Shown in pieces: positions 1-38,277 of a stretch of DNA of 39,211 nt. The first letter of the stretch is position 1; each line of letters begins with the position of its first letter. The notes beneath the pieces are model-generated. The model made no database searches and was not told the origin of the DNA. It saw nothing but the letters and a program-made list of their open reading frames with translations. The stretch lies in IMG/VR virus record IMGVR_UViG_2778261139_000004, positions 1-39,211 of that record. One strand, written 5' to 3'. Made by a program: the position numbers and the translations under genes. The stretch is from a virus (Duplodnaviria > Heunggongvirae > Uroviricota > Caudoviricetes).

Positions 1-1053
1 TTACGGGGTAATGCCAACCGCTGCCGCCACTTTGTCGCCATTTGGCAGCGTTGCCAGAGGATTGAAACGGAGCGCCGTTTCCAGATGATCCGGTGCCAGA
101 TGTGCGTAACGCATAGTCATTTTTATATCGTGGTGTCCGAGAATTTTTTGTAAGGCCAGAATGTTTCCACCCGACATCATGAAGTGCGCCGCAAACGTAT
201 GGCGCAGAACGTGTGTGAGTTGACCGCGAGGGAGCACGATAGACGTTTTTTCCATCACGGATAAAAATTGAAAATAGCAGTCTGTGAAGAAATTGAACCC
301 ATCAAGCGCCATAATCTCTTCGTAAAGCTCTTTACTGATAGGGATACTTCTGTTTTTCTTCCCCTTCGTTCTTACAAAGGTAATTCGGTATTTGGTCACC
401 TGTGAACGAGTAAGATTTACGGCTTCTCGCCAGCGTGCGCCTGTGCTTAAGCATATCTTAACTACCAGTGCCAGAATTGGGTCCTGACGTTTGCAATCAG
501 CCAGTAATTCAACAATCTGCTCATGGGTAAGCCATGCCATCTCTTTTTCTGAGATGGTGAATTTTCGCATGTTCTCCAGTGGGTTCGGATACGACCATTC
601 GCCCAGACGGGATAGTTCGCTAAAAACACTACTTAGATAGCTTTGCTCCAGGTTAATGGTGACCGGGCTTGCTCCTTTCTTCCATTTCTCGCTGAAGTAG
701 ATCTCGCCTGTCAGGCGTTTATCTCGATAGTGGGCAAACATTTTAGAGGTGAGATCGGTTGCAAGGGGATTGCCCAGAGCGTCAACCATCAACAGCAATT
801 TGTCATAGACATGCTGCCCAGCGGTTAGAGATTTACCATGTAGTTTGAACCATAGCTCAACCACGTCTTTCAGTGTTCGACGATCCACTGATTCTCCCAG
901 CCAGGGCTTTGCTTCGGTTTCTTCCATCGTATGGCGCTCAAAAGCCAGAGCTTCGCCTTTGGTGGCGAATTGTTTACGCACACGACGCCCACTACGTCCG
1001 GCGGGGTAACATTCGCAAAGCCATTTTCCTGTGGTGAGTTTTCGTACTGCCAT
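1..1053 (-). CDS. int: Phage integrase, tyrosine recombinase (P2/186 family)
   Basis: Long minus-strand ORF with the C-terminal tyrosine-recombinase signature (LRHTFA ... HHDIKMTMRYAHL, catalytic Tyr). Sits at the prophage left end next to the repressor. Preferred start is ATG at 1053 (MAVRK); the ORF-track start at 1068 lies inside a hairpin. Confidence 0.9.
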   Translation of the reverse strand: MAVRKLTTGKWLCECYPAGRSGRRVRKQFATKGEALAFERHTMEETEAKPWLGESVDRRTLKDVVELWFKLHGKSLTAGQHVYDKLLLMVDALGNPLATDLTSKMFAHYRDKRLTGEIYFSEKWKKGASPVTINLEQSYLSSVFSELSRLGEWSYPNPLENMRKFTISEKEMAWLTHEQIVELLADCKRQDPILALVVKICLSTGARWREAVNLTRSQVTKYRITFVRTKGKKNRSIPISKELYEEIMALDGFNFFTDCYFQFLSVMEKTSIVLPRGQLTHVLRHTFAAHFMMSGGNILALQKILGHHDIKMTMRYAHLAPDHLETALRFNPLATLPNGDKVAAAVGITP

Positions 1054-1078
1054 AAAAAATGCCCTCATGTCAGAGGGC
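1054..1078 (-). terminator. Putative intrinsic terminator directly upstream of the int start codon
   Basis: On the minus strand, GCCCTC-N6-GAGGGC (1061-1078) is followed by a T-tract (complement of the A-run at 1054-1060). It lies after the stop of the cargo membrane-protein gene. Confidence 0.4.
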
Positions 1079-1134: not shown

Positions 1135-1665
1135 TTACCTTAATTTATCAAGCTCTCGTTTATTTCTTTTATCATGTATATCATTAAGAAATAATATATT
1201 ACTAGCAATGATACTAAATAACGCTATTATTTGTAGATATACTAATAACGCTGTGATAAAAAATCCAAACTTGCAGAACACGTGCTTATGCAAGGAAATG
1301 AAATCCAGATTTGAAAATATAGGTTTCGTTAAATTTATTATAACAATAGAAAATATTACAATAGCTGAAATTATAATGGTTTTCACTATCAGCGTAATTC
1401 GCTCAATATCTTTTTCTGTTTCCTTATGATAGTTTATACTAGTTATTGTTGATGGCTTTACAATTGAACTTACAGCTGCAGGGTAAATATATGCAAGCCA
1501 AATACCTGCAATAGTGAAGATCATTGCAGAAATGTTTTGCAAGGTAGATAAAATATCTTTTATATCTGCATACGTATATTTGTCTCCGAACAAATAAGCA
1601 ATAGCTATAATTGTTAGGAGAAAACATATGTGCAAAATTTTAGGTTTTATAATCATACTATGCAC
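1135..1665 (-). CDS. Small polytopic membrane protein, about four predicted TM helices, function unknown (cargo)
   Basis: 176-aa ORF with four long hydrophobic segments (ILHICFLLTIIAIAYLF, ISAMIFTIAGIWLAYIY, ITLIVKTIIISAIVIFSIVIINL, FFITALLVYLQIIALFSIIASNILFL). AT-rich. Overlaps the upstream gene by 8 nt, suggesting translational coupling. Confidence 0.6.
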   Translation of the reverse strand: MHSMIIKPKILHICFLLTIIAIAYLFGDKYTYADIKDILSTLQNISAMIFTIAGIWLAYIYPAAVSSIVKPSTITSINYHKETEKDIERITLIVKTIIISAIVIFSIVIINLTKPIFSNLDFISLHKHVFCKFGFFITALLVYLQIIALFSIIASNILFLNDIHDKRNKRELDKLR

Positions 1666-2860
1666 CTATTTTATGAATCTGCACTGCTGTATCATTATCA
1701 GCTTCTGGTTGTTCTATTATATCTTCATTTTTAAAACAATTCACCAAATCATTTCTATGAGCTTTTACTACACTCATTAAATATGAAGAAGAGTAATGTT
1801 TGTTTCTGTTAGAAAGGTCAACGTGAATTTCATGGCGATAAACATATTCATCTAACCAAGTAGTTGAACCATTTTTTCCATTTATTTTGAATCCGATGCG
1901 TGCGTGATCATTCCCTACATTCTCATTGTTGTTTTCTGTATCTTCTGAAATAGGATTGTGGTTTTCTATATATTCATCGATGAGTTTAGTGAACTCTTCA
2001 GGCGTAGGCGTTCCTTCGACTAATAATTCAACGCGATGTTTTTTTGATAAAATAGGAGAGCTTCTTGAGAAAACATCTCCAACTGCATCAAATAACTTCT
2101 GCCATTTTTCCCGTGTATCAGGTATGTTTGTTTCTATTACGTCATGGTAAACAATGTGAGTGATTTTTTTACACAGTTCTTCTATGTTTGCTCCACTCGT
2201 GATCATCCTTGTTTGTTTAGTCTGTACTTTAAAAACTAAACTTTCATCATCACCTTGAGAAAAAAGAACACGTTTGTAATGAACGTCTTCAGGTGAGTCA
2301 TTACGAGGACGAGTCATATCTATGACTTTTTTATTAGGATGCTCCATCCTAAAGTCAACGTATGCTTTAATATAATGACAGAAAAGATCTGTATCCGTAT
2401 TAGAACTTGGGAATCGTATGGATGCAATTTTGTTATATTCTGGAATTACCCAATAGTAGCAAGGTACGCCCCAGATATATTTACCGCCACCTTGAGTATC
2501 AGAGGCGGATACAACATTATCTGAAGTGCCGTCAATCTTACTTTCAGCATCTATACCTTGAATATTTCCAGAGTTATCACCAAGCGTTTTCCAGATAACA
2601 AATAGATAATCTCCTGTCGTACTGTCATATGAAATATTTTTACAGTATGCTTTTGTTCTTCTATTATTATCCTTTCCCCATGGAACAGATTGTTCAACTG
2701 TTCTTGAACAGATCCAGCTATGTAAGTTACACAGAACATGGGATAAGTTCTTTTCGACTAATTCCGGCGATTTACCTTGTCGTATTTTATAAAGGCCAAA
2801 CATTTCTAAATCAAAAAATGTTATAATGCCGCGTTCAGTTTTAAAGTTGGTTTTACTCAT
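1658..2860 (-). CDS. Hypothetical 400-aa soluble protein of unrecognised family (cargo, first gene of a two-gene operon)
   Basis: 400-codon ORF in AT-rich DNA between cI and int. No Walker A, HNH, nucleotidyltransferase or other motif I can recognise. Same strand as cI and int. Confidence 0.6.
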   Translation of the reverse strand: MSKTNFKTERGIITFFDLEMFGLYKIRQGKSPELVEKNLSHVLCNLHSWICSRTVEQSVPWGKDNNRRTKAYCKNISYDSTTGDYLFVIWKTLGDNSGNIQGIDAESKIDGTSDNVVSASDTQGGGKYIWGVPCYYWVIPEYNKIASIRFPSSNTDTDLFCHYIKAYVDFRMEHPNKKVIDMTRPRNDSPEDVHYKRVLFSQGDDESLVFKVQTKQTRMITSGANIEELCKKITHIVYHDVIETNIPDTREKWQKLFDAVGDVFSRSSPILSKKHRVELLVEGTPTPEEFTKLIDEYIENHNPISEDTENNNENVGNDHARIGFKINGKNGSTTWLDEYVYRHEIHVDLSNRNKHYSSSYLMSVVKAHRNDLVNCFKNEDIIEQPEADNDTAVQIHKIGA

Positions 2861-2940: not shown

Positions 2941-3822
2941 TTAATTCGAAATGATTGTGCTTCTTATGCATGCAACTACCTCGATATCAGAAAATGCACA
3001 TTCAAAGTAAGTTTCTTTACTTCTGATATTTATCATACCTTTAGGTAGCCTAGTAATTTGTCTGACGGAATAGGTTCCATCAATATTAATTAACCAGTAT
3101 CCATCTAATACATCAGAAAATTTCTGATCACAGATGTATGTCACTAAACCATCCTGAACGACAATTGGTGCTGAAAGATTAGCGGGTAAAAATGACGAAT
3201 CGAAAATATATGAGCCACTCTCAACCATTTTGCCTGCATTGAGATGAAATTTAGGCAGTTCTTTTACCGATGTTGTGAGAGCATTGTGCTCGCTGCCTTG
3301 TCCAGTGGCTAGCCATAAAAGAGAATTTCCTGTTTCCAACGAACATTTTATGATCCAATCAGCCGGGAATGTGTCTCGCAAATATCTATTTGCCATAGTG
3401 CTTTTAGATACATTCAGATGGTCGGCAAGTTCTTGTCTTGTTTTAAAGCCATACGCTTTCATTAGCCTGTCTATTGCATCACGTCCGCCTGAGTCCAAAT
3501 TCAGATCGTTCCCAATTGGGGACTTCAGTGTGGTGGCTTGGGAAACGTGCTGAACCTTTGATGCAGTTGCCTTTGACATGACCGGAGCCTCAGTACTCTG
3601 AGGGAATGGTACGCCTTTTCCGAATGAGAGCCACTCGATAGATGCACCCGTTTCAATTGCACACTGAATTACCCAGTCAGCAGGAAATACGTCACGCATC
3701 CAGCGCGTGCCCATAGTGCTTGCAGATACGTTGAACTGTTCGCACAGAGCTTGCCTTGTCTTGAATCCATACGCTTCAAGCATGCGCGTTATGACTGCTT
3801 GTCCTCCGTTTTTGAAATTCAT
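2941..3822 (-). CDS. cI: CI-like immunity repressor (186 type) with a tandemly duplicated N-terminal DNA-binding domain
   Basis: 293-aa ORF divergent from the apl/cII operon. Two related segments occur in tandem (MLEAYGFKTRQALCEQFNVSASTMGTRWMRDVFPADWVIQCAIETGASIEWL and LMKAYGFKTRQELADHLNVSKSTMANRYLRDTFPADWIIKCSLETGNSLLWL), followed by one C-terminal domain. Confidence 0.75.
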   Translation of the reverse strand: MNFKNGGQAVITRMLEAYGFKTRQALCEQFNVSASTMGTRWMRDVFPADWVIQCAIETGASIEWLSFGKGVPFPQSTEAPVMSKATASKVQHVSQATTLKSPIGNDLNLDSGGRDAIDRLMKAYGFKTRQELADHLNVSKSTMANRYLRDTFPADWIIKCSLETGNSLLWLATGQGSEHNALTTSVKELPKFHLNAGKMVESGSYIFDSSFLPANLSAPIVVQDGLVTYICDQKFSDVLDGYWLINIDGTYSVRQITRLPKGMINIRSKETYFECAFSDIEVVACIRSTIISN

Positions 3823-3947
3823 TTATTACGCCTTTGAGTAATTTTTGGTTGACTCTTCTCAAGTGAAGAATTAGTGTGTGCGAAAGTGAACTGAACAGGA
3901 TTAATCACCAGTTACCACACATCTTGTTAAACGAGGAATCTTGCATC
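3823..3947. promoter_or_regulatory. Lysis/lysogeny switch region between divergent cI and apl (face-to-face pR/pL type)
   Basis: 125-bp intergenic region between divergent regulator genes. TTGACT at 3858-3863 followed 17 bp later by TAGTGT is a possible rightward promoter. Operator positions not resolved. Confidence 0.45.
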
Positions 3948-4169
3948 ATGGCTCCACATATTTCAATCACCTTAGCTGTCCCATCTGTTTCTATTGAGAA
4001 ATACAGTGAACTGACTGGGTTATCTATCGATACTATCAATGACATGCTGGCTGATGGACGCCTTATTCGCCATCGTCTCCGTAAAGATAAAAAGCGAGAA
4101 AAGGTAATGATCAATATCGCAGCAATGACCGTTGATGCGCTCTCTGAATGCAATTTGAGTATTAACTAG
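3948..4169 (+). CDS. Apl/Cox-like excisionase and transcriptional regulator (small HTH protein)
   Basis: First gene of the rightward early operon, divergent from cI. Small basic protein with an HTH-like segment (IEKYSELTGLSIDTINDMLADGRL). Start chosen at the internal ATG 3948; the ORF track extends to 3876. Confidence 0.55.
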   Translation: MAPHISITLAVPSVSIEKYSELTGLSIDTINDMLADGRLIRHRLRKDKKREKVMINIAAMTVDALSECNLSIN

Positions 4170-4201: not shown

Positions 4202-4711
4202 ATGTTTGATTACCAAGTTTCCAAACATCCACATTTTGACGAAGCCTGTCGTGCATTCGCACTGCGCCACAACCTGGTGCAACTGGCAGAACGTGCAGGC
4301 ATGAATGTACAGATTCTGCGGAACAAGCTGAACCCAGCTCAACCTCATTTATTAACCGCACCAGAAATCTGGTTGCTTACCGATCTGACTGAAGATTCAA
4401 CGCTGGTAGATGGCTTTCTGGCACAGATTCACTGCCTGCCATGTGTACCGATTAATGAGGTGGCAAAAGAGAAACTGCCGCATTACGTCATGAGTGCAAC
4501 CGCAGAGATCGGGCGTGTTGCTGCAGGTGCGGTATCTGGCGATGTAAAAACCAGTGCAGGCCGTCGTGATGCGATCAGCAGCATTAACTCTGTTACACGA
4601 CTGATGGCGCTGGCCGCTGTTTCATTGCAGGCCCGTTTACAGGCTAATCCTGCGATGGCGAGTGCAGTTGATACAGTGACTGGCCTCGGTGCTTCATTCG
4701 GTTTGCTGTGA
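4202..4711 (+). CDS. CII-like establishment regulator (186 CII position and size)
   Basis: 169-aa ORF immediately after the apl-like gene; matches the position and, from recall, the size of 186 CII. Confidence 0.5.
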
Positions 4712-9109: not shown

Positions 9110-9129
9110 TACTGTAAATATAAACAGTG
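9110..9129. promoter_or_regulatory. LexA (SOS) box overlapping a putative -10 element
   Basis: TACTGTAAATATAAACAGTG has CTGT-N8-ACAG and matches the LexA consensus TACTGTATATATATACAGTA at 17 of 20 positions. A TATACT -10 candidate at 9108-9113 overlaps it. Confidence 0.6.
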
Positions 9130-9168
9130 GTTATGCATACAGTATTGCTTGGTGTCATAGGAGGAAAG

Positions 9169-9357
9169 ATGCAGGACTATTTTTTGGAGTCTTTGAAGCT
9201 CCAGCGCATTGATTTTTTTCTTAAGCTTGTAGCGGCTAGTGAGTGTAGTGATGAAGAGAAGGGGCTGGCTTTGCAGTGGGTTTCTGAACTAACAGATGAA
9301 CTCATGGCAAAAATCAGAACCCACGAATACAACCGCTCAATGGATGTCATCAGCTGA
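9169..9357 (+). CDS. Small hypothetical protein, possible N-terminal part of a Tum-like SOS antirepressor
   Basis: 62-aa ORF with AGGAGGA upstream of ATG 9169; directly downstream of the LexA box and upstream of the dinI-like gene. Confidence 0.45.
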   Translation: MQDYFLESLKLQRIDFFLKLVAASECSDEEKGLALQWVSELTDELMAKIRTHEYNRSMDVIS

Positions 9358-9367
9358 GGTGACTTTT

Positions 9368-9601
9368 ATGCGCATTGAAATAATGATCGATAAAGAGCAG
9401 AAGATTAGCCAGTCTACCCTGGACGCCCTTGAATCCGAGCTTTACCGCAATCTGCGCCCCCTGTATCCCAAAACGGTAATTCGTATCCGTAAAGGTAGCT
9501 CTAACGGTGTGGAACTGACTGGACTGCAACTGGACGAAGAAAGGAAGCAAGTGATGAAAATTATGCAGAAGGTGTGGGAAGACGACAGCTGGCTGCATTA
9601 A
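9368..9601 (+). CDS. dinI: DinI-like protein
   Basis: 77 aa, MRIEIMIDKEQ ... VWEDDSWLH; resembles the DinI family in length and pattern (MRIEV ... start, acidic C-terminus with W). Confidence 0.7.
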   Translation: MRIEIMIDKEQKISQSTLDALESELYRNLRPLYPKTVIRIRKGSSNGVELTGLQLDEERKQVMKIMQKVWEDDSWLH

Positions 9602-9736
9602 GAAACGTTGCTGGCGTCTGAACTTGTTTCTGGCGTCAGCAAGGTTTAACAACGAGCCCTTGTGAGGCGTTAGCTCTGTAGTGCATGTCTATGCCGCATG
9701 AGATCGCATGATCGTTTGAGGATCGTTTTTGCTAAG

Positions 9737-9760
9737 GCCCGCCAGAACTGGCGGGCTTTT
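9737..9760 (+). terminator. Rho-independent terminator ending the early operon
   Basis: GCCCGCCAG-aac-CTGGCGGGC stem-loop followed by TTTT. Confidence 0.6.
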
Positions 9761-9807
9761 GCGTAGATCATGCAGGTGCATGAAAACCACTACATAAAGC
9801 GGGCAGG

Positions 9808-9826
9808 CGTGGCGGGGATACGAGCG
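9808..9826. other. cos-like motif resembling the P2/186 cohesive-end core
   Basis: GGCGTGGCGGGGATACGAG; the first 13 nt match my recollection of the 186 cohesive end (GGCGTGGCGGGGAAAGCAT). Recollection only, not verified. Confidence 0.3.
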
Positions 9827-9832
9827 CGCGCC

Positions 9833-9861
9833 TTGCCTTATATCTATTTGTTCATTAAAAT
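9833..9861 (+). promoter_or_regulatory. Putative sigma70 promoter for the retron ncRNA/RT operon
   Basis: TTGCCT (9833-9838), 17-bp spacer, TAAAAT (9856-9861). Confidence 0.3.
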
Positions 9862-10075
9862 CATTATGCTCTTTAGTGTAGGAACATTGGTTCCAGCCGG
9901 GTGATTAGCCAGGCTTAAATTTATTGTCCGGTTTAGGGTTGCGAAAGACACAGATTTCTCCTTCGCATCCCTGCCCGGGGCAGATATGCGAAGGAGAAAT
10001 CTGTGTCTTTCGCTGTCTTTAGTGAAGAGTCAAAGCGCTATGTAAAGTTGCATAGCGCTTTGGTTTTAAGAGGGG
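9862..10075 (+). ncRNA. Candidate retron msr-msd non-coding RNA region; boundaries approximate
   Basis: Structured non-coding DNA directly upstream of a retron-type RT: palindrome GGAAC-attg-GTTCC (9881-9894), perfect 28-bp inverted repeat (9941-10013) and a perfect 12-bp hairpin (10031-10062). a1/a2 repeats not confidently identified. Confidence 0.4.
9941..10013. repeat. Perfect 28-bp inverted repeat with a 17-nt partly palindromic spacer (candidate msd stem-loop)
   Basis: GCGAAAGACACAGATTTCTCCTTCGCAT (9941-9968) and its exact reverse complement (9986-10013); spacer CCCTGCCCGGGGCAGAT. Confidence 0.9.
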
Positions 10076-10079
10076 TTAT

Positions 10080-11015
10080 ATGCAACTAACTTCTAAAATT
10101 ATCAGTAAGTTTAATTATAATAGATTAGCTTTCCAATTACTTTTAAATGAGGCCCCCAAAAAATATAAAGTTTATTATATTCCTAAACGTGGCGCAGGTT
10201 TTCGGGTGATAGCTCAGCCGACAAAGGAACTAAAAAACGTACAGAGATTTATAGTATCTTTGCTACAGCCAAAGCTGCCTGTTCATCATAAGGCAATGGC
10301 ATATGAATATAAAAAAAGTATTAAAGATAATGCATTGTTGCATAAAGATAATAATTATATTCTTAAAATGGATTTTCAGAACTTCTTTAACAAAATTAAA
10401 CCTGATATATTTTTCTCGAAACTTGAGAACACAGGGCTGAAATTGGATTCATTTGATGAGAATACCCTACGTAATTTGCTTTTTTGGCGTCCGGGAAAAA
10501 AGAGAAGTACAACGTTGATATTAAGTGTAGGGGCGCCAAGCTCACCATTTATTAGTAATTTTGTTATGTATGACTTTGACAAGAGTCTTGATGATTGGTG
10601 CCGTAACAATGGTATCACTTATTCAAGGTATGCAGATGATATAACTTTTTCAACTAATATTAAGGATATATTGTGCAGGGTTCCTAAGGTGGTAAAAAAA
10701 ATGTTGTCGCTCCATGTTCCCGGTCTATCAATCAATGAATCTAAAACAATTTTTACATCGATGGCTCATAATCGGCACGTGACTGGTGTAACACTTACAC
10801 CTCAGGGCAATTTATCAATTGGTCGCGATCGTAAAAGGATGCTGTTTGCAAAGATTCATAAATATTCTTTGGGACTCTTATCTTCCGAAGAAATAAATAA
10901 AACCAAAGGGATGATTGCGTTTGCAAATTATTTGGAGGGTGATTTTTTATTAAGGTTACAAAAAAAATATGGTTGTGAGTTAATAACTAAGTTCCTGATG
11001 GAAGGAAACAAATAA
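10080..11015 (+). CDS. Retron-type reverse transcriptase
   Basis: 311 aa with the RT active-site motif YADD (SRYADDITFS), an upstream GAPSSP motif, and the retron-typical VTG motif (NRHVTGV) downstream. AT-rich cargo. Confidence 0.85.
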   Translation: MQLTSKIISKFNYNRLAFQLLLNEAPKKYKVYYIPKRGAGFRVIAQPTKELKNVQRFIVSLLQPKLPVHHKAMAYEYKKSIKDNALLHKDNNYILKMDFQNFFNKIKPDIFFSKLENTGLKLDSFDENTLRNLLFWRPGKKRSTTLILSVGAPSSPFISNFVMYDFDKSLDDWCRNNGITYSRYADDITFSTNIKDILCRVPKVVKKMLSLHVPGLSINESKTIFTSMAHNRHVTGVTLTPQGNLSIGRDRKRMLFAKIHKYSLGLLSSEEINKTKGMIAFANYLEGDFLLRLQKKYGCELITKFLMEGNK

Positions 11016-12649
11016 TGATAAATAAAATGAATTTAGAGACTTGCTATGTTGATTTTTTAGAGTTGGAATCACATGTGATAAACGAGGATTATTTGAAGGA
11101 GTCTGTTGAGCTTCAAAAGCTAATATCTACTTTAAATGAGAGTAAGTTTCATTTAAATAAAATAGGTATACATGATTTTAAACGGATAAGAGAACTACAG
11201 ATTTCTTTAGAAGATGATTTGACTGTTTTTGTCGGGGATAACGGATTCGGTAAAAGCACTATTTTGGATGCAATAGCAATTGTTTTGAGTTGGTTGAGAT
11301 CAAATATTGAAAAGGAGAGTAAGCCTGGTACTTATATTAAAAGCCATGAAGTTAATAACTCTGTTGATGTTGAGTATGCATCAATTGATGCAAATATAAA
11401 ACTCAAGGACTTTAATACCAGTATTTTGATTACTAAAGCGAAAGAGGGGGCATATTATTCTAGAAATAATGAATTGTTGGAGGTAAAAAAACTTGCAAGT
11501 ATTTATAGACTTGTGAATAAATATGTTGATAATGCAAGCTTGCCTTTGATGGCATATTATTCTATTGCGCGTTCTTATATAGGCGGCGGGGTTGATAGGA
11601 AAAGAAAAAATGCTAAAACTAAAACTGTATGGTCAAAATTCGATGTGTATGATGAAATCGAGTTTGACAGAAATGATTTTACCGATTTTTTTCAATGGCT
11701 TGTATTTCTTCATAACAGAGCTTCACAAGAGAAATTGAGTGAGTCACAAACGACAATCAATGCGTTATTTTCAGATATTCAGAGTTTGAAAGCAACATTA
11801 ACTCAACTATCTGCGATTGATAATATTGATTCAACAGTTATAAAAGGTTTAGAGCTTTCGCTTAAAGAAAAATTGAACTACATGAAATCTCTGCAATCAG
11901 GAGAACATAAGTTTAATAATGCAGTATCACTTTATGATAGTGTTATAAATACCATTCTAAAGTTCTTGCCTGAATTTCAGTGGATTAAGCTTGTTTATGG
12001 TGATGATGATTATAAGATTATCCTTAAAAAAGGAGAGGTTGAATTAGATATTCAACAGTTGTCTCAAGGTGAGAAAACTATATTTACTTTAGTTGGTGAT
12101 TTGGCTCGACGTTTAATTTTACTTAATCCAAATTTATCTAATCCTCTATTGGGATATGGGATTGTTTTAATTGATGAAATTGATTTGCATTTGCATCCGC
12201 AATGGCAACAGACAATTATTGAGCGTTTGACATCTACATTCCCAAATGTTCAATTTGTAATTACTACCCATAGCCCACAGGTTTTATCCACTGTTAGCTC
12301 TCGTTCAGTGCGTATTCTACAGGAAGTGGAAGTAGATGGTGTTAATGATTTGATAGTGTCTCACCCCGACTATCAAATAAAAGGTGTTAGTAATCAGGAT
12401 GCACTTTTATATGGAATGAGAACTGATCCTATACCCTCTACTAAAGAAAATGGTTGGCTTGAAGAATATAAAAAATTGGTTGAGCTTAATCGTTATAGCA
12501 GTGACGAGGCTCTTTTGTTAAGAGAAAAAGTTATTAAACATTTCGGATTAGACCATCCTTTAGTTCAAGAGTGTGATGATCTTATATCTGTTTTGGAGTT
12601 CAAAAATAAGATAAATCAGCACTTTTCTGGAAGTAAGGATGTAAAATGA
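11015..12649 (+). CDS. PtuA-like ABC/AAA-type ATPase (Septu-type effector partner of the RT)
   Basis: Walker A GDNGFGKST, Walker B VLIDEIDLHLHP, TTHSP motif. Start overlaps the RT stop. Confidence 0.8.
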   Translation: MINKMNLETCYVDFLELESHVINEDYLKESVELQKLISTLNESKFHLNKIGIHDFKRIRELQISLEDDLTVFVGDNGFGKSTILDAIAIVLSWLRSNIEKESKPGTYIKSHEVNNSVDVEYASIDANIKLKDFNTSILITKAKEGAYYSRNNELLEVKKLASIYRLVNKYVDNASLPLMAYYSIARSYIGGGVDRKRKNAKTKTVWSKFDVYDEIEFDRNDFTDFFQWLVFLHNRASQEKLSESQTTINALFSDIQSLKATLTQLSAIDNIDSTVIKGLELSLKEKLNYMKSLQSGEHKFNNAVSLYDSVINTILKFLPEFQWIKLVYGDDDYKIILKKGEVELDIQQLSQGEKTIFTLVGDLARRLILLNPNLSNPLLGYGIVLIDEIDLHLHPQWQQTIIERLTSTFPNVQFVITTHSPQVLSTVSSRSVRILQEVEVDGVNDLIVSHPDYQIKGVSNQDALLYGMRTDPIPSTKENGWLEEYKKLVELNRYSSDEALLLREKVIKHFGLDHPLVQECDDLISVLEFKNKINQHFSGSKDVK

Positions 12650-13329
12650 AATATCTATCTAGGCAAATGCCAGGGCCTTCCGTTCTTAATAAATTTGACT
12701 ATAGGAGGGATGATTGGAATTCCCTATCATCAAATGATAAAAAAGAAATATGGGAAGAAATAATAAAAATGCAAGGTAAATTATGTGCTTATTGCGAGAA
12801 AAAAATAGAGCATCATAAAAGTGGTGGCAAAAATAAAGTTGAGAGGCATATTGAGCATTTTTACAGGAAAAGTTATTACAAAAATTTAACTTTCGAGTGG
12901 TCTAATTTGTTTGGCTCATGTGGTGAGCCGCAAAGGTGTGGGTTTTATAAGGATAAGCAAAAATATAACGATGATGATTTAATTAAAGCTGATAGACAAA
13001 ATCCAGATGTTTTTTTCCATTTTTTGGAAAATGGTGATGTTCATATTAGAGAAGGCTTGAATGAGAAAGAACACAAAATGGCAGAGGTTACGTTAAGAGT
13101 ATTTAACTTAAACCCGTCCTCAGGAGGAGTCAAGGCGGAAAGAAGACGTGCAATAGAATTAAGCATGACATTAATAAAGGAACTGGTCGGATGTGCATCT
13201 CAGCTTATTGAATCAGGATGTGAAATTGAAGATGTTAGATCTATGGTCTTTGATGAGTTTAAAAAGAATGTAAAAGATAGATGCTTTACCACTGCGATAA
13301 AGCATGTTTTTGAGAATAGAATGCCTTAA
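12646..13329 (+). CDS. PtuB-like HNH-type nuclease
   Basis: CAYCEKKIEHH ... ERHIEHF ... SCGEPQRCG cysteine/histidine pattern consistent with an HNH zinc-finger nuclease. Overlaps the ATPase stop by 4 nt. Confidence 0.65.
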   Translation: MKYLSRQMPGPSVLNKFDYRRDDWNSLSSNDKKEIWEEIIKMQGKLCAYCEKKIEHHKSGGKNKVERHIEHFYRKSYYKNLTFEWSNLFGSCGEPQRCGFYKDKQKYNDDDLIKADRQNPDVFFHFLENGDVHIREGLNEKEHKMAEVTLRVFNLNPSSGGVKAERRRAIELSMTLIKELVGCASQLIESGCEIEDVRSMVFDEFKKNVKDRCFTTAIKHVFENRMP

Positions 13330-36047: not shown

Positions 36048-36137
36048 TTCTTCGCAATGGAGAACTTTTAAGTTTTTAAAATGGAATAATGCGGTATCAT
36101 TATTGTGAATTTAGCAAAAATGGGGAGAGCTCGAAAA

Positions 36138-36356: not shown

Positions 36357-36436
36357 CGCTGCCGCCAATTTGTCGCCATCATTAAAAAACAGTGCTTCTA
36401 ACATCATGATTTTAAAAGGAATAAATTTCAGGCAAC

Positions 36437-36479
36437 AAAAAACCCATCAACCTTGAACCGAAATGGCGGGGTTGATGGG
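36437..36479 (-). terminator. Possible intrinsic terminator downstream of ybjL, at the prophage/host junction
   Basis: On the minus strand, CCCATCAACC ... GGTTGATGGG (10-bp arms) followed by a T-run; the loop is long and the element lies about 110 nt past the ybjL stop. Confidence 0.3.
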
Positions 36480-36591
36480 CTCCACAAAATGGGGACATCA
36501 AAGAAAAGCAGTGGCACTAATTAAGACTGATGCCCTGCGGAAAAGTTCTGCGGTTGTGCAAAAAAATTTCATTTTCAGGGCAACTTCAGTT

Positions 36592-38277
36592 TTATCCTAA
36601 TCCTGGCCATACCATGACGATGATTGTCCCTGCCAGCGTCAGCAGGACGTTGGCGATTGCGTAGGTGCCCGCGTAGCCCAGCGCAGGGATGTTACTGCGA
36701 GCTGTATCACTGATGATCTCCATTGCCGGCGCGCAGGTGCGTGCGCCCATCATTGCGCCGAACAACAGTGCGCGGTTCATTCGCAATACATAAGCACCGA
36801 ACAAGAAACAGATAACCACGGGCACAAGACTGACAATTAATCCGGCAATCAACATCTGACCGCCAATCGCGCCCAGGCCGTTATTAATACCGCTACCGGC
36901 GCTCAGACCAACGCCTGCCATAAACACCATCAAGCCGAACTCTTTCACCATGCTTAATGCACCTTGCGGAATGTAACCGAAGGTCGGGTGGTTAGCACGC
37001 ATAAAGCCCAGCATAATTCCGGCGAATAACAACCCGGCAGCGTTCCCCATGCCGAAACTGAATGTGCTGAACTGGAAGGTGATCATCCCGATCATCAGCC
37101 CAATAACAAAGAAGGCGCAAAATGCCAGCAGGTCAGTGACCTGGCTGTGAATCGAGATAAAGCCGATGCGATCGGCGATGGTTTTTACGCGACGGGCATC
37201 ACCGCTGACTTGTAAAACGTCACCTTTGTTAAGCACGACGTTGTCATCTATCGGCATCTCAATCTGGCTACGAATGACGCGGTTAAGGAAGCAACCGTGA
37301 TCGGTCAACTTCAGTTGTGCGAGACGTTTACCTACAGCGTTATGGTTTTTAACGACCACTTCTTCAGTGACGATACGCATGTCGAGAAGGTCACGATCGA
37401 AAACTTCTTTACCGTTACGGAAGCTGGGATCGAGTCGGGCATGGGCGTCGGGATAGCCTACCAACGCTATTTCATCGCCCATTTGTAGCACGGCATCACC
37501 GTCTGGATTTGCCAGAATCCCGTTACGTCGAATACGTTCAATGTAGCAGCCGGTTTGTCGATAAATACCCAGTTCACGCAGATTTTTGCCGTCGGTCCAG
37601 GCCACCAGCTCCGGGCCGACGCGATAGGCGCGGATCACCGGTAAATAAACCTTACGGTTGGCATCAGTGTCCAGGCCACGTTCGCGGGCGATTTGCTGGG
37701 CGCTGGTCTGTAAGTCCTGATGCTGCAATTTCGGCAAGTAACGCGCACCAACAATCAAACTCACCAGACCGATTAAATAGGTTAAGGCATACCCGAGGCT
37801 CAGATTATCCAGTGCCAGTGAGAGCTGCCTGCTTTCCATGCCGGAATGACGCAGTGTATCGCCAGCACCGACCAGAACCGGTGTCGACGTCATAGAGCCT
37901 GCTAACATACCGGCCGTCAGGCCAATATCCCAGCCAAACAGCTTACCTAACCCTAAGGCGATCACCAGCGCACTGCCAACCATCACCAGTGCTAACATTA
38001 GGTAATTTTTCCCATCGCGAAAAAAAATGGAAAAAAAGTTCGGTCCGGCTTCGACCCCGACGCAGAAAATAAACAGCATAAAGCCAAGATTAAGCGCATC
38101 GGTGTTAATGCTGAAATGTTGTTGGCCTAATAACAGCGATACGACTAAAACGCCAATGGAATTACCCAGTTGGATCGAACCAAGTCGTAACTTTCCGAGA
38201 CATAGCCCAAGCGCGAGGACCACAAATAATAACAGAATGTAATTCCCATTTAACAATTCGGCGACGTTTATATTCAC
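36592..38277 (-). CDS. ybjL: Putative transport protein YbjL (host)
   Basis: 561-aa multi-TM protein; recognised as the E. coli ybjL product by sequence recall and by synteny with ybjM and grxA. Confidence 0.8.

Follow-up and report, generated by a model that had tools for sequence, protein, structure and literature searches.

A two-headed CI repressor in a 186-type prophage

The window analysed here comprises positions 1 to 39,211 of the IMG/VR virus record IMGVR_UViG_2778261139_000004, a stretch of 39,211 nucleotides (nt) from a member of the Caudoviricetes. Its cI gene encodes the immunity repressor of a 186-type prophage (P2-like, Peduoviridae), and the protein of 293 amino acids (aa) is a natural two-headed form. 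Two DNA-binding heads of the helix-turn-helix (HTH) type stand in front of a single oligomerisation tail, where the characterised CI of phage 186 has one head per monomer. Strong purifying selection acts on both heads, each an intact domain of five helices, and is relaxed in the tether between them. The two-headed 186-type CI is real, selected and widespread, being common among prophages of gut bacteria, and it is apparently undescribed. It is a sub-architecture within the Pfam families PF07022 and PF16452, not a reason for excluding the protein from them.

Domain architecture

Evidence for two heads is provided by Pfam, by internal alignment and by structure prediction. PF07022 (Phage_CI_repr) is found twice in the protein (whole-protein E-value, E, 4.6e-59), and PF16452 (Phage_CI_C) is found once, at residues 189-285 (E 6.7e-26). 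Pfam gives no match to Peptidase_S24 (PF00717) at E<0.01, and NCBIfam has no model for the protein. When residues 1-105 are compared with the remainder by BLASTP, the first 70 residues pair with residues 107-176 without a gap, at 54% identity (E 9e-32). Codons 5-70 and 111-176, compared in register, share 56% of their amino acids and 61% of their nucleotides; their third positions are 39% identical, and the longest exact word that they share is 11 nt. The full HTH signature and the residues invariant in the family are intact in both heads.

The CI of phage 186 (PDB 2fjr, 189 aa) matches residues 114-284 only (E 2.4e-27), so the characterised protein has no counterpart of residues 1 to about 105. 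An earlier note on this DNA had described a CI-type immunity repressor in which two related DNA-binding domains, with divergent nucleotide sequences, precede one C-terminal domain, and had asked for an alignment to 186 CI. The description is borne out in each of these respects, and the alignment makes the present CI one head longer.

AlphaFold2 was run on the monomer with an alignment of 42 sequences of two-headed relatives. The model contains three confident domains: five helices at residues 7-67, five helices at residues 112-173, and a beta domain at residues 186-291. Residues 75-108, which link domains, have a predicted local distance difference test score (pLDDT) below 50. The overall predicted template-modelling score (pTM) is 0.41 and the heads do not pack against each other, so the model suggests a protein resembling beads on a string. 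The modelled tail superposes on the C-terminal domain of 186 CI (2fkd_A) with a template-modelling score (TM) of 0.93 and a root-mean-square deviation of 1.2 A. It is also distantly LexA-like in fold (Foldseek E 2e-6).

Conservation and selection

Twelve complete E. coli genomes share a region of 1.6 kb around cI at 99% identity or more; they come from different hosts and countries, with water, goat, dog, human and deer as sources. RefSeq labels the gene in these genomes as one coding sequence, 'phage repressor protein CI'. The reading frame is kept in a 92% variant, found in six further genomes, and in an 89% variant with a different tail, found in other genomes; both variants bear the same label as a single coding sequence. 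Between the variants, the ratio of non-synonymous to synonymous substitution rates (dN/dS) is 0.02 in head 1 and 0.02-0.10 in head 2, compared with 0.36-0.73 in the tether and 0.3-0.5 in the tail. The tether is variable in both sequence and length among relatives.

These data bear on the artefact reading, in which the long gene results from a sequencing or assembly duplication, as the earlier note had allowed for, or from a recent pseudogene fusion of two adjacent genes. The unusual length of the protein is the sole point in its favour. It is refuted by the presence of the same gene in 12 complete genomes and of in-frame variants at 92% and 89%, by purifying selection on both heads, and by the divergence of the copies, which at 61% nucleotide identity are too different for an assembler to collapse or expand them. 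Its probability is negligible.

Distribution among relatives

Two-headed CIs are a large established subfamily and are not peculiar to the present phage. They make up 46 of the 120 closest clusters at 90% identity (285-330 aa), the other 74 being one-headed (186-218 aa). Among representatives of 50%-identity clusters with a length of at least 180 aa, 19 of 81 are two-headed, ten of them checked with Pfam, and the lineages concerned include some that are just 28-36% identical to the present CI. One 50%-identity representative, P0252 (330 aa), carries two Phage_CI_repr heads on a Peptidase_S24 (LexA-like) tail instead of a 186-type tail; thus, the two-head layout recurs on different induction chassis. 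The earlier note had treated a uniform length of all relatives as evidence for an ordinary two-domain family. The family is in fact dimorphic in length (about 186-210 aa against about 285-330 aa), although the two-headed form is indeed common.

Examples of the same domain order, two PF07022 domains followed by PF16452, can be found in published Klebsiella phages, namely in 4LV2017 (Elveevirus, ARB15674.1), in the ST437/ST11/ST258 prophage series (ST437-OXA245phi4.2 and others), and in the E. coli proteins WP_001009712.1 and WP_065523357.1. The two-headed CIs in the databases occupy the same site in the P2-like genome as the present cI, and all are annotated simply as 'repressor CI'. The large two-headed clade is only 43-48% identical to the present CI; it has another class of head 1 (SQSTMANRYARD), a leader of 21 aa, and a switch mostly of another class. 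Its head-1 class is also the sole head of CIs of 206-209 aa in IMG/VR.

No paper on the two-headed layout was found in the literature on PF07022, on tandem or two-HTH 186-type repressors, or on the regulatory genes of P2-like phages. The survey of P2-like regulatory genes by Nilsson and Haggard-Ljungquist remarks on a 'longer coupler' and a 'longer C-terminal domain', with no mention of two heads.

A highly conserved single-head homologue of 204-206 aa (MKNTNIEIKMGADSGG...) was seen in nearly every genome of Xenorhabdus and Photorhabdus species (loci L030-L062 and L071-L089). Such conservation suggests that a P2-like element has become domesticated or fixed in the two genera.

Origin of the two heads

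The two heads are homologous, as the term 'tandemly duplicated' in the earlier note implies, but each has a far closer match among the single-head CIs than in its partner. Identity is 89% between head 1 and the one head of P0113 (E. coli, 206 aa) and 80% between head 2 and the heads of P0083, P0108 and P0089 (197 aa), whereas heads 1 and 2 are about 55% identical to each other. The recognition helix of head 1, SASTMGTRWMRD, is that of the P0113 class. That of head 2, SKSTMANRYLRD, belongs to the commonest class among single-head CIs (SKST[LM]ANRY[LM]RD). Each is identical or nearly identical to the helices of single-head CIs regarded as functional. Neighbour-joining and identity data currently point to head 1 being nested inside the single heads of the P0113 class.

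Three different immunity regions are combined in the DNA as a mosaic. In blastn, window positions 4143-3614, which contain apl, the entire switch and head 1, align over 543 nt with the P0113 locus L003 at 71% identity. Positions 3525-3296 (the end of the tether and head 2) match the P0083 locus L006 at 71%, and positions 3458-2941 (head 2 and tail) are 75% identical to the single-head cI of L008/P0005. By these alignments cI is a mosaic gene, with a head 1 of the P0113 class, a head 2 of the commonest class and a P0005-like tail. The single-head CIs of P0113, of P0083/P0108 and of P0005, the last of which is represented by Escherichia phage vB_EcoM-813R9 and Klebsiella phage KP12 (198 aa), appear to be the parental types; none of their immunity regions is a mosaic of the others.

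We infer an in-frame fusion in which the head from one cI was placed before the 5' region of another cI that was itself complete, because the tether-coding DNA holds what appear to be relics of the junction. The strongest is an operator-like palindrome (GTTCCCAATTGGGGAC), homologous to a dyad at cI codons 5-10 of L006. The tether segment AAGTCCCCAATTGGGAACGATCTG that carries it matches codons 5-12 of the P0083 gene; the local alignment scores 33, and shuffled sequences reach 29 at most. Weaker candidate relics are a possible start codon at M82 and a TTGACA box on the opposite strand. In single-head phages of the L006, L008, L012 and L016 type, the pR -35 box TTGACA overlaps the cI start codon as TTGACAT, and M82 read on the opposite strand likewise gives TTGACAT. 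There is no good -10 box at 17 nt from the TTGACA of the window, so the element is probably dead. The DNA from M82, ATGTCAA...CATCAAAG, resembles ATGTCAACATCAAAG of single-head cI genes (which start MSTSK). The local alignment score of this likeness is 17, equal to the shuffle mean and not significant, and M82 is retained as a possible ancestral start.

If the N-terminal domain had simply been duplicated in tandem, in situ, inside one cI and the copies had then diverged, the homology of the heads would be explained, provided that the resemblance to single-head CIs came from later recombination or head loss. The CI family recombines readily; P0003, for instance, keeps both heads with a different tail. 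Copies that are each other's closest relatives occur in the distant proteins P0190, P0236, P0240 and P0252 alone, whose heads are 53-68% identical to each other and 36-45% identical to any single-head CI, and which look like genuine in-situ duplications. In about 85 of 92 two-headed proteins, each head is nearer to some single-head CI than to its partner. For the present gene an in-situ duplication is improbable, given how much closer its heads are to those of single-head CIs and that the affiliation of the flanking DNA shifts together with the heads. In addition, an internal domain duplication would not create junction relics, so these count against it. What tells against the join is that the data give the event no direction; deletion of a head from two-headed CIs could equally have produced the single-head forms.

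Switch region and candidate operators

The predicted promoter pR of the window corresponds in position to the annotated pR of 186 (TTTACT-17-TATATT) and to that of L003 (TTGACA-17-TATTTT). A dyad in its spacer is the candidate central CI operator. It is the only exact match to TCTTC-N6-GAAGA in the window (0.93 matches with up to one mismatch are expected by chance), and it lies where 186 has its central operator ATCTCTCAATTGGGAGAT and where L003, a P0113-class phage, has ACTTTCCAAATGGAAAGT. An intragenic palindrome of L003, GTCTTCAATTGAAGAA, has the same TCTTC/GAAGA arms. The earlier note expected two heads per monomer to change operator spacing; no such change is visible, since the dyad is placed exactly as in single-head relatives. 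The GenBank record of 186 (U32222) lists three CI sites at pR, with the central dyad in the promoter spacer, together with FL (+270..286, inside cI), FR (in the apl-cII interval) and a pair of sites at pB.

The pR operators are provisionally assigned to head 1, because head 1 shares the P0113 class and the switch DNA of the window aligns only with a phage of that class. In the independent major clade, a block homologous to single-head phages of the corresponding head-1 class extends from head 1 across the start codon and ends just beyond the -10 box (-38..+249, 77%).

The head-2 class would read dyads of the form GT(T/A)CCC-AWTT-GGG(G/T)AC, judging from single-head phages of the LANRY class, whose CIs have the recognition helix of head 2 and where pR is flanked by the dyads GTTCCCATTTGGGGAC and GTACCCAAATGGGTAC. 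The window holds exactly one dyad of this form, the palindrome in the tether-coding DNA, in an FL-like position about 346 bp from the pR dyad. Its core, CCCAATTGGG, occurs once in the window. The palindrome matches at 15 of 16 positions the dyad GTTCCCATTTGGGGAC, which lies just downstream of the pR -10 box in the single-head LANRYMRD-class loci L016-18 and L024 (Klebsiella, Raoultella and Citrobacter prophages).

A head-1-type operator may also be present upstream of the ogr/B late-activator gene, where TCTTCGCAATGGAGAA is a weak candidate for the equivalent of the 186 pB operator. A second element, TTGTGAATTT, was also seen upstream of ogr/B, at 36103-36112. According to the U32222 annotation, 186 CI represses pB through two sites, to which these two elements may be equivalent.

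Several other candidates were rejected. The palindrome-like GTTCCATTTTGGGATAC, between apl and cII, was considered as a head-2-type FR; since every immunity class examined conserves it, it more probably belongs to the region of pE and the cII ribosome-binding site. Matches to the A-type operator of 186, TTCAC-N5-GTGAA, occur in the window at chance level. No firm operator code emerged when 12 switch regions, and afterwards 80+80 further loci, were compared by eye. In the scans that supplied loci, genome_contigs gave almost only single-head Xenorhabdus/Photorhabdus genes, and IMG/VR gave many loci of the major clade. Among the latter, the pR-spacer element co-varies with head-2 type, ATGTGAACC occurring exclusively with SKSTLATRYMRD. 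This pairing may reflect a single clade, that is, linkage. Much of the pR spacer (GATCC) is conserved across all classes.

The GATCC directly upstream of the pR -10 box includes a GATC (Dam) site in most immunity classes (L006, L008, L012, L016-L024, L096-L175), and the phages concerned encode their own Dam-type methylase. The pR of the window itself has no GATC there.

Single-head switches of the SQSTMANRYARD class contain an inverted repeat with 8-bp arms around TAGTGAG, about 60-100 nt upstream of cI in the pR-to-apl direction (IMG/VR loci L097, L099, L100, L101, L106, L142 and L145). The arms vary between phages in a compensatory manner (GTGCCTAA..TTAGGCAC, GTGACGAA..TTCGTCGC, GTGCTGAA..TTCAGCGC). 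An RNA hairpin, or a protein site specific to the class, would fit the repeat better than a conserved operator.

Proposed mechanism

CI of phage 186 forms dimers, which assemble into a 14-mer wheel that wraps DNA. By analogy, the tail of the present CI, whose matching fold is suggestive in this respect, would dimerise and multimerise in the same way. Pairs of head 1 would bind the dyad in the pR spacer (3854-3869) and weaker flanking sites, shutting off transcription of apl, cII and the lytic genes in favour of pL. Pairs of head 2 would provide a second, independent specificity for GT(T/A)CCC-AWTT-GGG(G/T)AC dyads. Their target could be the site at 3508-3523 inside cI, acting as an FL-like anchor of a DNA loop, the operators of heteroimmune relatives, or both. 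Since head-2-type dyads flank pR in heteroimmune single-head relatives, incoming phages of that class could be repressed. Induction would proceed through the LexA-controlled split tum-like module (9110-9601) and not through self-cleavage. That head 1 acts at pR and head 2 supplies a second specificity has, in our estimate, somewhat better than an even chance of being correct.

The most economical version directs head 2 at the operators of heteroimmune relatives (cross-immunity), and perhaps also at the intragenic site. A broader proposal is dual-specificity immunity, in which one head runs the resident switch and the other reads the operators of a co-circulating class, so that two classes of 186-like phage are excluded. 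The two-headed state could also be a viable intermediate in a change of immunity: a second head would be gained, the operators re-wired, and the first head lost. This route is suggested because the same heads occur alone and paired, attached to mosaic switches. The broader proposal is tentative, and we regard it as possible rather than probable.

A number of observations weigh against this reading of the two heads. The operator assignments draw on position, symmetry and homology. A consensus promoter scanner called no pR in the window, where the -10 box is weak, so the assignment of pR relies on homology; pL was likewise not called. There is no head-2-type dyad in the resident switch, which leaves a role of head 2 in the regulation of its own prophage unproven. 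The intragenic palindrome is degraded in the two nearest two-headed relatives (to CCCTATTGGG in L011, by the synonymous change CCA>CCT, and to CCCAATTGTG in L001, by GGG>GTG), and it is therefore possibly a functionless relic of the fusion. In the major clade the switch is mostly (-442..+12) homologous to phages of the head-2-like class, so the rule that head 1 reads the resident switch may not generalise; the co-inheritance of head 1 with its switch could be simple linkage. Finally, 186 CI reads two types of operator with one head (PMC3675496), so a code of one head for one site is not guaranteed.

Alternative explanations

Two heads of one chain might instead bind the two halves of a single asymmetric operator as a pseudo-dimer, with the tail dimer spanning two operators. 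This is the arrangement that the earlier note had in mind; the tether, with about 33 disordered residues, is long enough for it, and the half-sites flanking the pR dyad look asymmetric. The best candidate sites, however, are symmetric and of two kinds (TCTTC..GAAGA and GTTCCC..GGGGAC), so like heads would be expected to pair across the tail dimer and not within a chain. The pR dyad and its position are also shared with single-head relatives, and the AlphaFold2 model (pTM 0.41) has no head-head packing; a pseudo-dimer is rather unlikely. Alternatively, one head may not bind DNA at all and may act as a dock or decoy for antirepressors, either Tum-like or from other prophages, so that it alters sensitivity to induction and not operator recognition. 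CIs of the 186 type are inactivated by antirepressor binding (PMC3121763, PMC7708051), the prophage has a putatively LexA-controlled split tum-like module whose first ORF (open reading frame), of 62 aa, is unrelated to 186 Tum, and the resident switch offers head 2 no operator of its type. Neither head is marked as degenerate, however: in both the HTH signature and the family-invariant residues are complete, dN/dS is 0.02-0.1, and the recognition helices are those of functional single-head CIs or nearly so. A purely regulatory head is accordingly a poor prospect in our judgement.

A further alternative is that one gene gives two isoforms, the two-headed protein of 293 aa and a one-headed protein of 212 aa started at M82, which would mix in the oligomer and tune repression. 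GAGG lies at 3588-3591, 8 nt upstream of M82, and the ATGTCAA start resembles those of single-head cI genes. M82 is kept in L011, the P0002-type relative with the 92% variant, and nested starts are annotated in the tum gene of 186 (U32222). Against this, the codon is AAA (Lys) in L001, the P0003-type relative with the 89% variant, the start-region similarity does not rise above shuffles, and most two-headed CIs have no Met at this position; therefore, a short isoform cannot explain the upkeep of the architecture. The earlier note had placed the internal start at M121 (MKAYGFK), which is implausible. This Met falls inside helix 1 of head 2 (residues 112-124 in the AlphaFold2 model), so the product would be predicted to miss part of the fold. 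The sole Shine-Dalgarno-like sequence, AGG, is just 3 nt from the ATG, and relatives mostly have V, I or L at the position. M82 would be the better candidate for an internal start, though it is not conserved, and the production of two isoforms is unlikely.

Comparison with known systems

The closest characterised system is that of coliphage 186. Its CI (2FJR/2FKD) has the same family of HTH head and the same C-terminal fold as the present protein, and its genome has the same gene order (int-cI / apl-cII-fil; U32222). The dyad operator in its pR spacer and its LexA-controlled tum/DinI module have putative counterparts in the present prophage. The CI of 186 differs in having one head, where the present CI has two of different classes and a disordered tether. 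The identity in structural alignment is 28% only, the operator sequences differ, and tum is split into two ORFs in the present prophage. The parental-type classes are single-headed throughout, and in the P0113 class the switch DNA is homologous as well.

Engineered single-chain repressors, such as RR69 of the 434 repressor, contain two covalently linked DNA-binding domains. They likewise join two HTH domains of the same family by a flexible linker, and heterologous pairs give a new composite specificity. They are artificial, however, have no oligomerisation tail and use one operator per chain; for the present CI the symmetric candidate sites argue for pairing of heads across chains. Repressors of the S24 type, such as LexA and lambda CI, share the general plan of an HTH domain and a beta tail, with a distantly similar tail fold. 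They self-cleave, whereas the present CI has no S24 match and would be expected to be induced by an antirepressor.

Other features of the prophage

The gene order of the window is int, two cargo genes, cI, a divergent apl/cox-like gene, cII, fil, a Dam-type methylase gene, a replication gene, the tum-like module, a retron, morphogenesis genes and ogr/B (Table 1). Fil was identified by PF10893 and the ogr-like late activator by PF04606. The position of cI between int and a divergent apl/cox-cII-fil operon is that of a 186-type repressor gene.

The LexA box in front of the tum-like module, TACTGTAAATATAAACAGTG, looks perfect; in 186 a putative LexA site lies over p95 in front of tum (U32222). 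The DinI-like ORF matches PF06183 (DinI, E 1.3e-22) and is 41% identical to the C-terminal half of 186 Tum. The 62-aa ORF overlaps it in another frame and matches phrog_698, to which no function is assigned; no similarity to the N-terminal half of 186 Tum was found. The 62-aa protein is the likely candidate for the antirepressor. Split tum genes are reported for Fels-2 and PSP3 (PMC3121763).

Table 1. Features of the window that relate to the CI repressor, with positions in the 39,211-nt stretch.
Feature	Position	Strand	Basis
Integrase gene (int)	1-1068	-	
cI, two-headed 186-type immunity repressor, 293 aa	2941-3822	-	ORF, Pfam, 186 CI alignment, single coding sequence in RefSeq
cI stop codon	2941-2943	-	
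C-terminal oligomerisation domain, residues 186-293	2944-3267	-	PF16452, fold superposition
Head 2 (NTD2), residues 106-180, recognition helix SKSTMANRYLRD (common class)	3283-3507	-	second PF07022 match
Inter-head tether, residues 73-105, predicted disordered	3508-3606	-	pLDDT, dN/dS
Palindrome GTTCCCAATTGGGGAC, candidate head-2-class operator, FL-like position	3508-3523	.	homology
TTGACA over M82, possible relic -35 box of the second gene's pR	3573-3578	+	likeness to single-head phages; inferred
M82 ATG, possible relic start of the downstream (second) cI	3577-3579	-	read from the sequence
Head 1 (NTD1), residues 1-72, recognition helix SASTMGTRWMRD	3607-3822	-	first PF07022 match
Predicted pR towards apl/cII: TTGACT (3850-3855), 17 nt, TAGTGT (3873-3878)	3850-3878	+	positional homology; inferred
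Dyad TCTTC-N6-GAAGA in pR spacer, candidate central CI operator, assigned to head 1	3854-3869	.	position, symmetry, homology
apl/cox-like excisionase and lytic repressor, 73 aa, divergent from cI	3948-4169	+	phrog_575 'Cox-like excisionase and repressor' (E 3e-28); synteny with 186 apl
cII, activator of the establishment of lysogeny	4202-4711	+	PF06892 Phage_CP76 (E 3.2e-42)
LexA box TACTGTAAATATAAACAGTG over promoter-like TTTACA-17-TATATA (p95 equivalent)	9110-9129	+	read from the sequence
Split tum-like SOS module	9169-9601	+	62-aa ORF (9169-9357) and DinI-like ORF (9296-9601)
TCTTCGCAATGGAGAA upstream of ogr/B, possible head-1-type operator at pB equivalent	36049-36064	.	11 of 16 positions match the pR dyad, by eye

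Two defence-related insertions were observed. A complete type I-A retron-like module lies on the plus strand between the tum region and the portal gene (10080-13329), at the known P2 hotspot near cos; its ncRNA would be expected upstream, at around 9650-10080. The module consists of a reverse transcriptase (PADLOC RT_I-A, E 4.9e-131), a PtuA-like ATPase (E 1.7e-193) and a PtuB/HNH-like protein (E 1.5e-117). The two cargo genes between cI and int (400 aa and 176 aa; 1135-2860, minus strand) match the candidate defence system PDC-M18 A/B (PADLOC, E 2e-36 and 5e-24) and have no Pfam matches. In related phages the same slot holds an AAA ATPase with DUF4276, GmrSD_N (PF03235) beside HEPN_RiboL-PSP, or a SNIPE/T5orf172 nuclease; with such varied cargo, the slot thus behaves as a second hotspot.

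A gene for a 561-aa Asp-Al_Ex/TrkA_C transporter follows ogr in host-like DNA (36592-38277, minus strand), so the right end of the prophage (attR) is expected at about 36360-36590. The left end is beyond the start of the window.

Significance

The CI of phage 186 is the textbook alternative to lambda CI. To our knowledge, its structural and quantitative models all assign one head to each subunit. About one fifth to one third of the sampled relatives of 186 CI have two heads, of different recognition classes. If both heads act on the resident switch, the model in which DNA wraps around a wheel would need a version with 28 heads.

If the second head does read the operators of other phages, cross-immunity between prophages would be built into the repressor, and such a head would be a plausible route for the evolution of immunity specificity. 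Read as an intermediate, the two-headed state would, if the reading is true, answer how a repressor and its operators can change together with no non-immune stage in between. Standard reporter, electrophoretic mobility shift and plating assays would allow direct tests of the system. The natural chimeras of heads and tails are also ready-made modular repressors for synthetic circuits.

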